Assembly: GCA_963814275.1 (NCBI GenBank) | Contig: CAWFCE010000001.1 | Coordinates: forward strand, 387,307 to 451,306 | Direction of reading: 5' to 3' | Source: Candidatus Parcubacteria bacterium | GTDB lineage: Bacteria; Patescibacteriota; Patescibacteriia; Patescibacteriales; UBA12075 | Length of the DNA stretch: 64,000 nt | Shown: one piece after another, positions 10,897-47,814 of the stretch | Layout of the letters: the number at the start of each line of letters is the position of its first letter | Position numbering within the stretch: position 1 is the stretch's first letter | Position numbers and translations under genes: made by a program | The notes under the pieces: generated by a model | The model's database searches: none | What the model saw: the letters and a program-made list of their open reading frames with translations, nothing else | Told to the model about the DNA's origin: nothing

Positions 10897-11035
10897 CCGG
10901 ATTAAAAGTCCGCAAGCCGTTCGAATTTTATACGGCTTGCGGACATTGTTTTTCCAATTGACAAGTTAAAAATAAGGTTTAAAATTAATTGTGTATAATT
11001 AATAATAAAAATTACAGCAATACGAATTCGACATT

Positions 11036-11055
11036 CCTGCCTATCGGCAGGCAGG
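11036..11055. repeat. Variant copy of the dispersed 20-nt GC palindrome
   Basis: CCTGCCTATCGGCAGGCAGG, 27 nt upstream of the CBS gene ATG. Confidence 0.8.
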
Positions 11056-11082
11056 CGTAATTCGTAATTCGACATTTGAAAT

Positions 11083-19078: not shown

Positions 19079-19676
19079 TATTCCTCGGGGCTCTGCCCCG
19101 GGGTTTCCTTCAGGAGGGAAAGTTTGAAAACCGTAGGTTTTCAAGAGGTTGATTAACAGCTAAACTATGTATATATGGATAAAGATGATAAACATATATA
19201 CAAAAGGCACAGCAAGACATTGCTACTCTACCACATAGTTTTTCCTGTAAAATATCGACGCTCTATTCTAACTCCTGAAGTTGAAAATTCATTGAAAGAT
19301 ATTTGTCTGGAAATTGGAATTTGCTATGAAATGAATTTTGTAGAAATCGGAGCCGACGAAAATCACGTACACTATTTAGTCCAGGGAATTCCAAGCATGT
19401 CGGTTTCAGAAATGGTGAAAACGATCAAAAGCATAACTGGAAAAGGGCTATTCAAGAAGCATCCGGAAATCAGGAAAATATTGTGGGGTGGAAATCTTTG
19501 GACATCAGGTTTTTATGCAAACACGGTCGGACAATACGGTAATGAAAAGATGATTAAGGAATATATCGAAAAACAGGGCGGAAGCTACAAAAAGATACAC
19601 GAAGGTCAGCTAAAACTGTTTGATTAACAAAAACATCGGAACATCCCCGATACCTCGGGGCTCTGCCCCGGGGTAA
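19079..19676 (+). mobile_element. IS200/IS605-family insertion sequence
   Basis: A Y1 transposase gene is flanked on both sides by the same motif CCTCGGGGCTCTGCCCCGGGG (19083-19103 and 19652-19672), which forms a GGGGC/GCCCC hairpin. Confidence 0.8.
19175..19627 (+). CDS. tnpA: IS200/IS605 family transposase TnpA (HUH Y1)
   Basis: 150 aa. Contains LLLYHIVFPVKYRR, HVHYLVQ (HUH) and GFYANTVGQYG (catalytic Tyr region). Confidence 0.9.
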   Translation: MDKDDKHIYKRHSKTLLLYHIVFPVKYRRSILTPEVENSLKDICLEIGICYEMNFVEIGADENHVHYLVQGIPSMSVSEMVKTIKSITGKGLFKKHPEIRKILWGGNLWTSGFYANTVGQYGNEKMIKEYIEKQGGSYKKIHEGQLKLFD

Positions 19677-19682
19677 TTCATT

Positions 19683-19718
19683 AAAAACACTGGCCCTAAA
19701 AAGGCCAGTGTTTTTTTA
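19683..19718. terminator. Bidirectional hairpin terminator
   Basis: AAAAACACTGGCC-CTAAAAA-GGCCAGTGTTTTT, with A and T tracts on the two sides. It lies between the IS200 element and the 3' end of tRNA-Leu. Confidence 0.7.
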
Positions 19719-19743
19719 TATTCTATTATGAGTAATATATCCG

Positions 19744-19827
19744 TGCCCAGGGAGGGAATCGAACCCTCATGAGATTACTCCCACACGATTTTGAGTCGTG
19801 CGCGTCTACCAATTCCGCCACCTGGGC
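19744..19827 (-). tRNA. tRNA-Leu(CAA), intact, class II
   Basis: The reverse complement folds by hand into a cloverleaf. Acceptor stem GCCCAGG/CCTGGGC. The D region GGCGGAATTGGTAGACGCG matches my recollection of E. coli tRNA-Leu. Anticodon loop CTCAAAA, long variable arm, T arm GAGGG-TTCGATT-CCCTC. No CCA is encoded. Confidence 0.9.
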
Positions 19828-20066
19828 TAATGTATAGATTTAATATATTCTCTGCCGCAGCCCGATTTTAAAAATATTTCTCTTTTTCTTGCTTCGGCTC
19901 TTGATGAATATTTTTCAACTATTAAAGTTGTAAAAGGTCTATATGGTTTAGTAGTTTTATTATAGCCATAATTATGTTGTTTTATTCTTCTTGCCGGGTT
20001 ATCAGAAATGCCGATGTAAATGTAATTAAGTTTTAAGCTTTTAATAGCGTATACAAAGTAATCCAT
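19827..20066 (-). CDS. GIY-YIG nuclease family protein (79 aa, URI/COG2827-like), copy 1
   Basis: Contains YFVYAIKS...NYIYIGISDNPARRIKQHN...SRAEARKREIFLK. The TAG stop shares one nucleotide with G1 of the intact tRNA-Leu. Confidence 0.85.
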   Translation of the reverse strand: MDYFVYAIKSLKLNYIYIGISDNPARRIKQHNYGYNKTTKPYRPFTTLIVEKYSSRAEARKREIFLKSGCGREYIKSIH

Positions 20067-20130
20067 GTCGATTTTGAGCCTGCCTGCCGGCAGGCAGGTC
20101 GTGCGCGTCTACCAATTCCGCCACCTGGGC
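20067..20130 (-). other. tRNA-Leu 5' fragment disrupted by the 20-nt palindrome (copy 1)
   Basis: It is identical to tRNA-Leu from nt 1 to the end of the 5' anticodon-stem strand. CCTGCCTGCCGGCAGGCAGG (20079-20098) follows, then CTCAAAATCG, then AC plus the ORF ATG. Confidence 0.9.
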
Positions 20131-20369
20131 TAATGTATAGATTTAATATATTCTCTGCCGCAGCCCGATTTTAAAAATATTTCCCTTTTTCTTGCTTCGG
20201 CTCTTGATGAATATTTTTCAACTATTAAAGTTGTAAAAGGTCTATATGGTTTAGTAGTTTTATTATAGCCATAATTATGTTGTTTTATTCTTCTTGCCGG
20301 GTTATCAGAAATGCCGATGTAAATGTAATTAAGTTTTAAGCTTTTAATAGCGTATACAAAGTAATCCAT
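20130..20369 (-). CDS. GIY-YIG nuclease family protein, copy 2
   Basis: Its protein is identical to copy 1. There is one synonymous nucleotide difference (20184 c versus 19881 t). Confidence 0.85.
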   Translation of the reverse strand: MDYFVYAIKSLKLNYIYIGISDNPARRIKQHNYGYNKTTKPYRPFTTLIVEKYSSRAEARKREIFLKSGCGREYIKSIH

Positions 20370-20433
20370 GTCGATTTTGAGCCTGCCTGCCGGCAGGCAG
20401 GTCGTGCGCGTCTACCAATTCCGCCACCTGGGC
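20370..20433 (-). other. tRNA-Leu 5' fragment disrupted by the 20-nt palindrome (copy 2)
   Basis: Same structure as 20067-20130, with the palindrome at 20382-20401. Confidence 0.9.
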
Positions 20434-20749
20434 CTTTTAAATTTCGAATTGCGATTTTCGATTTACGAATTATTTTTGTCTTAATTTGGTATACAAATAT
20501 TAGCAAAAAAATAAATAACTGCTATCTATCGCAGTTAATTACTGTAGAAATTATAAGGGAAAAATTAAAAAAAGTCAAAATTTGCCAAAACAAGCCGATT
20601 ACGTTATAATAAAGCAGATGAATTGTTGTATGGACAGTAATGAATATAAAAAGGGAATGTGGTTTGCTGCGATTATTCACGGCTGGCATCGTAGTGATAA
20701 ATAACAGCAAATTGGAGCAAAAATTAATTAAGATCTCCGATTCACAAAT

Positions 20750-47586: not shown

Positions 47587-47763
47587 TTTTTCATATTTCA
47601 ATATTTTTTAGTAAGCAAACAAAGAATTGGCCGTTATTGAAGTTTAATCAAACAATTTTCAATAATCCAATTTTCAATTTTCAATCAATATAAGATATTA
47701 ACATTTAATTTTCAACGTTTTGTTTTGATATTAAATATTGAAAATTAAATATTGATTGAATTA

Positions 47764-47783
47764 CCTGCCTGCCGGCAGGCAGG
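47764..47783. repeat. Exact copy of the dispersed 20-nt GC palindrome
   Basis: CCTGCCTGCCGGCAGGCAGG lies at the centre of an AT-rich spacer, 31 nt upstream of the permease ATG. Confidence 0.9.
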
Positions 47784-47814
47784 TTGGATTATTGAAAATT
47801 TTAAAATTTAAATC

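Follow-up and report, generated by a model that had tools for sequence, protein, structure and literature searches.

The closest described analogues of the element reported here are the mobile open reading frames (mORFs) of fungal mitochondria, known from atp6 of Allomyces macrogynus and from atp6, atp9, cox2 and nad3 of Glomus, in which an endonuclease open reading frame (ORF) invades a gene and supplies a replacement for part of it, with the native part persisting as a fragment next to the ORF (PMC3630166). In a 64,000-nucleotide stretch of the genome of a Candidatus Parcubacteria bacterium (contig CAWFCE010000001.1, positions 387,307 to 451,306; in the following "the window"), we analysed a tandem array of two 303-bp units that adjoins a tRNA-Leu(CAA) gene. 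We favour, with some reservation, the view that the 303-bp unit is a minimal selfish homing-endonuclease-like cassette that comprises a Slx1/UPF0213-type nuclease gene and a piece of the target tRNA gene. Like the mORFs, which are of the LAGLIDADG or GIY-YIG type and whose mobility is attributed to the encoded endonuclease, the cassette combines a free-standing endonuclease ORF with a partial target copy that restores function, and hybrid or mosaic genes are found in both cases. Unlike the mORFs, the cassette resides in bacterial chromosomes of many phyla and in a tRNA gene instead of a protein gene, its ORF of 79 aa encodes a bare catalytic domain, versions carrying the 5' and versions carrying the 3' part exist, tandem arrays are formed and many GC-rich hairpins are scattered through the dead fragments. 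The original prediction, made from the letters of the window, had named no described element of this architecture; the architecture is indeed not described for bacteria in the searchable full-text literature (subscription-only papers were outside the search), but with the mORFs a close analogue does exist. By analogy, the cassette appears to follow the logic of known free-standing homing-endonuclease and mobile-ORF elements, yet it is striking and widespread.

SegB of phage T4 is a protein of about 220 aa with a DNA-binding part; it is phage-borne and is not known to involve a partial duplication of the target. It is a free-standing GIY-YIG homing endonuclease encoded in a tRNA gene cluster, which promotes its own inheritance and that of the neighbouring tRNA region (PMC2330249). 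SegB and the cassette have in common that a GIY-YIG gene lies among tRNA genes and not in an intron; unlike for phage-borne SegB, no phage or viral homolog of the window protein was found in INPHARED (E 1e-5) or IMG/VR. In integrase-type islands, the partial tRNA copy is usually the 3' part. These elements have sizes of 9-23 kb or larger, encode a tyrosine integrase and leave one complete and one partial tRNA copy, and a survey of tRNA fragments in prokaryotes names only CRISPR spacers and integrated elements of 9-23 kb as sources (PMC9897764). The cassette differs from them by its size of ~0.3 kb, by the lack of an integrase, by duplication of either the 5' or the 3' part and by tandem arrays. 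A group I intron is found in the cyanobacterial tRNA-Leu gene. Group I introns with homing endonuclease genes are also described for tRNA genes of Patescibacteria (PMC13011429). Like the cassette, they disrupt a tRNA gene close to its anticodon loop and may code for a nuclease; unlike in group I introns, there is no ribozyme according to Rfam, the ORF is followed by the 5' part or the whole of a tRNA gene and not by a 3' exon, and an uninterrupted tRNA gene is present beside the cassette. The proteins that share the minimal stand-alone domain with the window protein are Slx1 and UPF0213 (COG2827). Slx1 is a repair nuclease of the host and depends on Slx4, and a survey of GIY-YIG proteins includes stand-alone bacterial Slx1-like proteins without reference to a linkage to tRNA genes but notes fusions to tRNA methyltransferase-type domains (PMC1564403). 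Neither linkage to tRNA genes nor mobility of bacterial Slx1/UPF0213 proteins is described in the searchable literature.

The array and the tRNA gene are located on the minus strand and are composed of the following features, as determined by direct reading of the sequence and alignment to the tRNA:

19744-19827, minus strand: intact tRNA-Leu(CAA), found by ARAGORN (call at 19743-19827) and by the Rfam tRNA model (61 bits)
19827-20066, minus strand: GIY-YIG ORF, proximal copy, 79 aa (ORF list; Pfam PF01541)
20067-20130, minus strand: tRNA-Leu 5' pseudo-fragment of the proximal unit (sequence, alignment to the tRNA), with tRNA nt 1-32 at 20130-20099, the palindrome at 20098-20079, nt 33-42 at 20078-20069 and AC at 20068-20067
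20130-20369, minus strand: GIY-YIG ORF, distal copy, 79 aa (ORF list)
20370-20433, minus strand: tRNA-Leu 5' pseudo-fragment of the distal unit, with the palindrome at 20382-20401

As predicted, two head-to-tail units of 303 bp are located upstream of the intact tRNA-Leu, and TRF reported a tandem repeat at 19795-20433 with a period of 303, 2.1 copies and 99% match. The order of the parts was reproduced to the base: in the 5'->3' direction of the minus strand, each unit starts with tRNA nt 1-32 (raw numbering; the final bases CACGA are the 5' strand of the anticodon stem), followed by the 20-nt palindrome CCTGCCTGCCGGCAGGCAGG, nt 33-42 (CTCAAAATCG), AC and the ATG of the ORF, and the G of the stop codon TAG is at the same time G1 of the next tRNA copy (G19827 in case of the proximal ORF). 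The sole difference between the units is T at 19881 versus C at 20184, which changes codon 62 from AGA (proximal) to AGG (distal) and is synonymous, again as had been noted. The copy number in the window is that of a single assembly without reads; since the units carry one single-nucleotide polymorphism (SNP), we argue that there are two real copies at least. Two insertions and unequal crossing-over fit the two-unit array alike. By comparison with the empty sites L159 and L161 (loci and proteins are given by L and P numbers), the distal fragment occupies the original +1 place of the tRNA behind the native leader, and the intact tRNA at the downstream end of the array would be the regenerated target. 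A group I intron and an integrase island had been dismissed in the original prediction, and both dismissals hold. At E <= 1 the intact tRNA was the only significant Rfam match in the region, three further matches were all far under the gathering scores and neither an intron family nor a ribozyme model was among them; each ORF is followed by tRNA nt 1. Further, the unit holds the 79-aa ORF only and no gene for an integrase or another tyrosine or serine recombinase.

A search for relatives in one genome per GTDB species gave 34 loci whose proteins share 38-64% identity. The hosts, with taxon labels taken from the titles of the metagenome-assembled genomes (MAGs), include Patescibacteria, Bacteroidota, Omnitrophota, Gracilibacteria, Zixibacteria, Margulisiibacteriota and Kiritimatiellae, and many of the contigs have sizes of 100 kb to 1 Mb. 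That homologs would lie beside tRNA-derived sequence was borne out, since a tRNA gene on the same strand abuts the ORF in 28/34 loci, and 3 of the remaining 6 are cut by contig ends. In 23 loci the tRNA gene is located downstream, with the ORF stop mostly between -50 and +30 nt from tRNA +1 and, given more narrowly, mostly at -25 to +12 nt, and in 5 it is located upstream and ends 16-45 nt before the ORF. The linked tRNAs are Leu (CAA, GAG, TAG, TAA), Asn, Arg, Gln, Ser, Glu and Lys. More than 20 loci contain pseudo-fragments of the 5' or the 3' part; at least 15 have, directly before the ATG, a pseudo-copy of the downstream tRNA that starts exactly at nt 1 and ends variably (~nt 33 to 71), with the ATG following within 0-14 nt. 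In the Leu-CAA clade (window, L035, L036 and L011), the left junction after CTCAAAATCG(T) is fixed within 2 nt, and the same junction is found in the translated N-termini of P0005, P0011 and P0018. Mirror-image versions were found in L002, L003, L004, L030 and L037. In L002 and L030, the intact tRNA is followed by a spacer, the ORF and a tRNA 3' fragment; in L004, by a terminator, the ORF and a full-length pseudo-tRNA whose +1 is abutted by the stop codon and whose sole disruption is the 20-nt palindrome; in L003, tRNA fragments are located on either side of the ORF. Arrays are found elsewhere, too: L002 and L022 have 2 units each, and L030 has 7.1 units with 99% identity. What the loci share is an ORF between directly repeated copies of one tRNA gene, partial or complete, of which exactly one is intact. 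The very small element with its own 5' tRNA copy that had been proposed for the window is thus found again at Leu, Asn, Arg, Gln, Ser, Glu and Lys tRNA genes, with empty syntenic sites, and looks like a widespread selfish element of bacterial genomes. A side observation was made in L037/L038 (129-1370), where the gene of the closest protein homolog, P0001 (74% identity), has a tyrosine integrase gene and the bare 3' end of a tRNA as neighbours, and where a 3' fragment with the exact palindrome comes after the ORF; because the ORF adjoins the integrase gene, the cassette here co-occupies a tRNA site with an integrase-type element.

The number of units at one and the same locus varies between related genomes. 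At the locus with genes for a TPR protein, tRNA-Leu, ParA and ParB, 0 units are present in L159-L162, 1 unit is present in L035 and L036 and 2 units are present in the window. L159-L162 are closest to the window by ParA (85% identity) and contain promoter, leader and tRNA only, neither ORF nor fragment. L035 and L036 are the two closest protein relatives (68% and 73% identity) with long contigs and have the same neighbourhood as the window, with ParB-ParA divergent from GIY-YIG and tRNA-Leu(CAA), but their ParA proteins are only 66% and 63% identical to that of the window; since these element-bearing genomes are distant and the close relatives are empty, the distribution of the element is patchy. 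The tRNA-Leu of the window was compared with those of an empty, close genome and of two element-bearing, distant genomes over three segments, of which nt 27-58 comprise the anticodon and variable arms:

L159 (empty, close): mismatches 1/26 in nt 1-26, 14/32 in nt 27-58, 0/26 in nt 59-84
L036 (element-bearing, distant): mismatches 5/26 in nt 1-26, 2/32 in nt 27-58, 10/26 in nt 59-84
L011 (element-bearing, distant): mismatches 2/26 in nt 1-26, 2/32 in nt 27-58, 6/26 in nt 59-84

The window tRNA is a mosaic, with ends like those of the element-free relatives and a centre like that of the distant element-bearing genomes. Judged from these sequences, the mosaic fits a co-conversion of flanking target sequence. 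The assumption that the element carries its own 5' part along gained support from L006, in which the upstream fragment is a tRNA-Leu 5' part that is unlike the adjacent tRNA and matches the fragment of L011, including a shared hairpin insertion; because it matches the fragment of L011 and not the adjacent tRNA, the fragment travels with the ORF. A neighbour-joining tree was calculated from the short 79-aa protein and lacks support values; in it, the grouping of the proteins follows the linked tRNA and not the host phylum. Leu-CAA-linked proteins of Patescibacteria and Bacteroidota form one group, and further groups are made up of the Glu-linked and of the Gln-linked proteins; the Bacteroidota and Patescibacteria proteins are 64-67% identical and interleaved.

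Two further observations concern the tRNA-Leu genes at this locus. A different, ORF-less unit of 66 nt is found just 3' of tRNA-Leu in the element-free L159 (2030-2105) and L160 (1965-2105; minus strand in both). L159 has one copy of it and L160 has two in tandem; the unit consists of a 53-nt insert with the hairpin CCCCGTGATTGCGAAGCAATTTTACGGGG and a second copy of the final 13 nt of the tRNA (CCCTCCCTGGGCA) and is another tiny repeat that duplicates a tRNA end. In L035, a remnant of an older tRNA-Leu, from nt 27 to its 3' end, lies downstream of the intact tRNA (2329-2425) and has the palindrome at the same site as the upstream 5' fragment. These fragments share an overlap of 34 nt (CACGA-palindrome-CTCAAAATC), and the intact tRNA that they enclose differs in its anticodon stem.

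The assignment of the ORF product to the GIY-YIG family was confirmed by Pfam, with 57.1 bits for PF01541 (cut-off 22.6; E 2e-15). In 26 diverse homologs the catalytic residues Y6, Y17, G19, R27 and E63 are invariant, and H31 is conserved in at least 90%. An AF2 model (pLDDT 94.7) with the order E-E-H-E-H-H corresponds to a minimal GIY-YIG domain, an alpha/beta fold with a three-stranded sheet. Foldseek retrieved Slx1 (TM 0.66-0.69), UPF0213 and the catalytic domain of I-TevI, with Slx1 and UPF0213 ranking above I-TevI, and the best sequence matches in the PDB were UPF0213 EF2693 and Slx1; the best sequence and fold matches were 1ywl, 1zg2, 4xlg, 6seh and 7cq2. The window protein also matched a PHROG homing-endonuclease family. 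As judged by sequence and fold, it is a member of the stand-alone Slx1-like/UPF0213 subgroup without auxiliary domains, and neither Pfam nor the AF2 model revealed a DNA-binding module as in I-TevI or SegB, the catalytic domain being the whole protein. The ratio of nonsynonymous to synonymous substitutions (dN/dS) of 0.09-0.19, with dS of at least 1, is that of strong purifying selection. The family is large, with 3022 clusters (50% identity) at E <= 1e-3 and 274 at E <= 1e-10. About half of the called proteins have 92 aa or more, and in 26/269 the extension contains the palindrome translated in frame; because these calls read through the tRNA fragment and the palindrome, the 26 extended homologs are gene-calling artefacts. 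A search with PADLOC gave nothing meaningful as to membership in a defence system.

How could such a cassette spread? In the mechanism that we infer, the nuclease would break an element-free tRNA gene, and the break would be repaired from an element-bearing copy, with the tRNA-derived fragment and the intact tRNA as homology arms. The ORF would be copied in along with some of the tRNA sequence of the donor, giving the mosaic, one intact tRNA would be regenerated and the displaced part would stay behind as pseudo-fragment. Because an intact tRNA would be regenerated, the host would lose nothing and, since this is again an intact target, the process could be repeated and build tandem arrays; alternatively, arrays could arise by unequal crossing-over between the repeats. 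The regenerated tRNA might be spared if the element-linked allele, for example one with a CACGA-type centre, were resistant. If the model is true, a very small (~0.3 kb) and widespread class of selfish elements in bacteria lives on tRNA genes without destroying them. This would explain a recurrent source of tRNA gene fragments as well as the inflated "GIY-YIG proteins" whose N-terminal extensions are translated tRNA fragment and palindrome, and would provide a route for the horizontal replacement of tRNA gene segments, seen as mosaic tRNAs. It would also give a concrete role to a large family of uncharacterised stand-alone UPF0213/Slx1-like proteins and tie them to a conserved 20-nt palindrome that is spread across phyla, and a nuclease of 79 aa that finds tRNA genes would be of interest to enzymologists and tool builders.

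Several points weigh against a selfish homing cassette. A bare catalytic domain of ~79 aa comes without the module that is behind the long recognition sites of I-TevI and SegB, and the intact tRNA that is regenerated would be open to renewed cleavage if the element-linked allele were not resistant. The persistence in L035 and L036 at one locus is long and vertical, so mobility may be rare, and since no phage or viral homolog was found in INPHARED or IMG/VR, no vector for a spread across phyla is evident. The window fragment is 100% identical to the intact tRNA, and the array could have arisen by local duplication alone. In principle, the mosaic could be the result of fast compensatory evolution in the close relatives.

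The 20-nt palindrome deserves separate treatment. It is far beyond chance (0 matches expected in shuffles), and it is not specific to the element, because two orphan copies are present in the window:

47764-47783, no strand assigned: orphan exact palindrome, intergenic, 32 nt upstream of an ATG
11036-11055, no strand assigned: orphan degenerate palindrome CCTGCCTATCGGCAGGCAGG with 2 mismatches, intergenic, 28 nt upstream of an ATG

There is neither a GIY-YIG gene nor tRNA-like sequence near the exact copy. In a metagenome scan, the palindrome was found in at least 120 contigs (L039-L158) with GC contents from 29 to 71%, and a GIY-YIG relative is nearby in only ~8 of them, which also speaks against a private part of the cassette. 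Among the matches listed, 10/127 copies are located in tRNA-like sequence, compared to 17/1212 control positions, and 63% lie outside long stop-free spans, compared to 27% of random positions, which is a bias towards intergenic DNA; 47/127 of the copies listed are found inside stop-free spans of at least 450 nt. In L131 the palindrome reads LPAGRQ within a P-type ATPase, beside the GDGINDAPAL motif, and recalls in-frame palindromic elements. The exact palindrome disrupts a dead tRNA copy in the window, L003, L004, L007, L008, L012, L017, L035 and L037, that is in at least 5 phyla, and the loci with the palindrome by the ORF belong to Omnitrophota, Gracilibacteria, Bacteroidota, Margulisiibacteriota and further Patescibacteria. 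Other hairpins are found as well: a YCCGCC-N4-GGCGGR family, the palindrome-like CCTGCC-N3-GGCAGG (L030) and CCTGTC-N4-GACAGG (L002). All mapped hairpin insertions in tRNA pseudo-copies are found within the D-, anticodon- or T-loop or where a loop meets its stem, and because L010 has one hairpin more than its relative L015, the hairpins accumulate over time. That the hairpin type tracks the protein clade was refuted, since the window has the palindrome type but L036, whose protein is 73% identical, has the CGCC type. A general preference of the palindrome for loops of other hairpins was rejected, too (stems of at least 5 in 3.3% versus 3.8% at random positions). Folding of fragment plus palindrome as RNA gave the expected hairpin, and the overall stability was not unusual (z = -0.12). 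We read the palindrome as a separate dispersed hairpin element and consider the hairpins in general to be small, independent elements that settle in dead copies of tRNA genes; palindrome and nuclease may be mechanistically linked.

Dispersed palindromic mini-elements are known as Rickettsia palindromic elements, GC clusters of yeast mitochondria and double-hairpin elements of Allomyces. With these, the palindrome shares the short GC-rich hairpin in AT-rich intergenic DNA, with some copies in stop-free gene spans; it differs from them in being only 20 nt long, perfectly palindromic and of the same sequence across phyla and in contigs of 29-71% GC. To our knowledge, there is no enzyme known to mobilise the 20-nt palindrome, and its sequence was not found in the searchable full-text literature (with subscription-only papers outside the search). 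An IS200 transposase encoded beside the array was considered as the mobilising enzyme of palindrome or cassette and rejected: it is an ordinary IS200 TnpA and absent from the syntenic loci. Its gene (19175-19627) scored 18.9 on the RAYT model (cut-off 80), an IS200/IS605 or REP-RAYT origin was not borne out, and L035 keeps the palindrome though the syntenic loci listed show no IS200-type gene. As a further observation, the palindrome is often found within AT-rich, short imperfect repeats such as AATTCGTAATTCG and TTGAAAATTGAAAATT. Such repeat-rich flanks are present in the window (11000-11080, 47640-47810) and in L041, L056, L067, L079, L081, L084, L098, L112 and L144.

The explanation that competes most strongly with a nuclease that chooses its target, although we consider it unlikely, is that the cassette is mobile but its integration is purely homology-driven, of the Campbell type or homology-facilitated. 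A circular or linear copy with a tRNA segment would recombine with the conserved resident tRNA gene, and a structure-specific, Slx1-like nuclease would cut hairpins or cruciforms (the palindrome, cloverleaf-forming tDNA), stimulate recombination and perhaps mobilise orphan palindromes. This fits the anatomy as well as the homing model, since one crossover with a circle that carries tRNA nt 1..X, Y..end or the whole tRNA would give all three layouts plus arrays. Structure-specific Slx1 nucleases are the closest structural relatives of the protein, which is devoid of a DNA-binding domain, the hairpins in dead tRNA copies are all inserted at loops or junctions, and the exact palindrome adjoins the ORF in several phyla and is in frame in 26/269 homologs. 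On the other hand, ~92% of the palindrome copies among the matches listed are outside tRNA-like DNA, few of the palindrome contigs have a GIY-YIG gene nearby, and the hairpin type is independent of the protein clade. That protein clades follow tRNA identity is easier to understand if the protein provides the specificity, and no circles were observed. A related and rather doubtful possibility is that the bare Slx1-like domain reads DNA structure and not sequence, recognising GC-rich palindromes and the DNA of tRNA genes, which can form cloverleafs or hairpins. The cassette would then represent a new class of nuclease-only mobile elements, and the same enzyme would mobilise the orphan palindromes as non-autonomous partners, inserted at nuclease-made breaks in single-stranded loops.

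It is improbable that the gene is not mobile at all but an ordinary host gene of tRNA operons for a nuclease in repair or RNA processing, with fragments and arrays as products of local slippage or unequal recombination. Strong purifying selection, the syntenic position kept in the window, L035 and L036 and the identity of the window fragment with the tRNA would be in line with a host gene, as would the occasional fusion of prokaryotic Slx1-like domains to tRNA methyltransferases (PMC1564403). However, the geometry of fragment, ORF and tRNA arose at no fewer than 7 tRNA identities and in either orientation, the genomes nearest by ParA have no gene at the same site, and the proteins of Bacteroidota and Patescibacteria are too similar and too interleaved for this view, which is also at odds with the foreign fragment in L006 and the mosaic tRNA of the window. 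Finally, an assembly artefact, with one or another number of units in the true genome, is very improbable: a 303-bp, 99.7%-identical tandem repeat is hard for short reads and no exact match of the window GIY-YIG or ParA was found in other assemblies, but the copies differ by a SNP, which is not something an assembler invents, and independent arrays of the same kind exist in L002, L022 and L030.

Two signals for transcription flank the array:

20550-20578, minus strand: sigma-70-like promoter TTGACT-17-TATAAT upstream of the array, a consensus match only
19683-19715, bidirectional: intrinsic-terminator-like hairpin just past the tRNA

The site at 20578-20550 is the only strong promoter-like site, and similar promoters precede the tRNA in the empty loci L159 and L161. 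Because the ATG follows the fragment within 0-14 nt and the strong promoter-like site is found upstream of the array only, the ORF is probably expressed by read-through from the tRNA promoter, there being no room for a promoter of its own. In such a transcript, a cut by RNase P at +1 would free the tRNA right after the stop codon of the ORF. Like cleavage of the tRNA gene and homing by break repair, co-transcription is a deduction here.

Some minor observations were made in the surroundings. A terminator-like hairpin with a T-run (TAACTGCGATAGATAGCAGTTA TTTATTTTTT) is located at 20516-20537 (minus strand), between the best promoter match and tRNA +1, and a comparable hairpin and T-run is found at the same place in L159; it may be an attenuator, or the true promoter may be located further downstream. 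The leader upstream of the array (20434-20500) is AT-rich and contains short imperfect repeats, aattcgtaaatcgaaaatcgcaattcgaaattt. The IS200-type Y1 transposase gene at 19175-19627 (plus strand; NCBIfam 122 bits) lies between a gene for a TPR/O-antigen-ligase-like protein and the terminator of the tRNA; since the syntenic loci L159-L161 do not have this gene, it was inserted separately and recently right beside the array. Around this gene, near 19090 and at 19640-19680, hairpins of the CCCCGGGG type are found.

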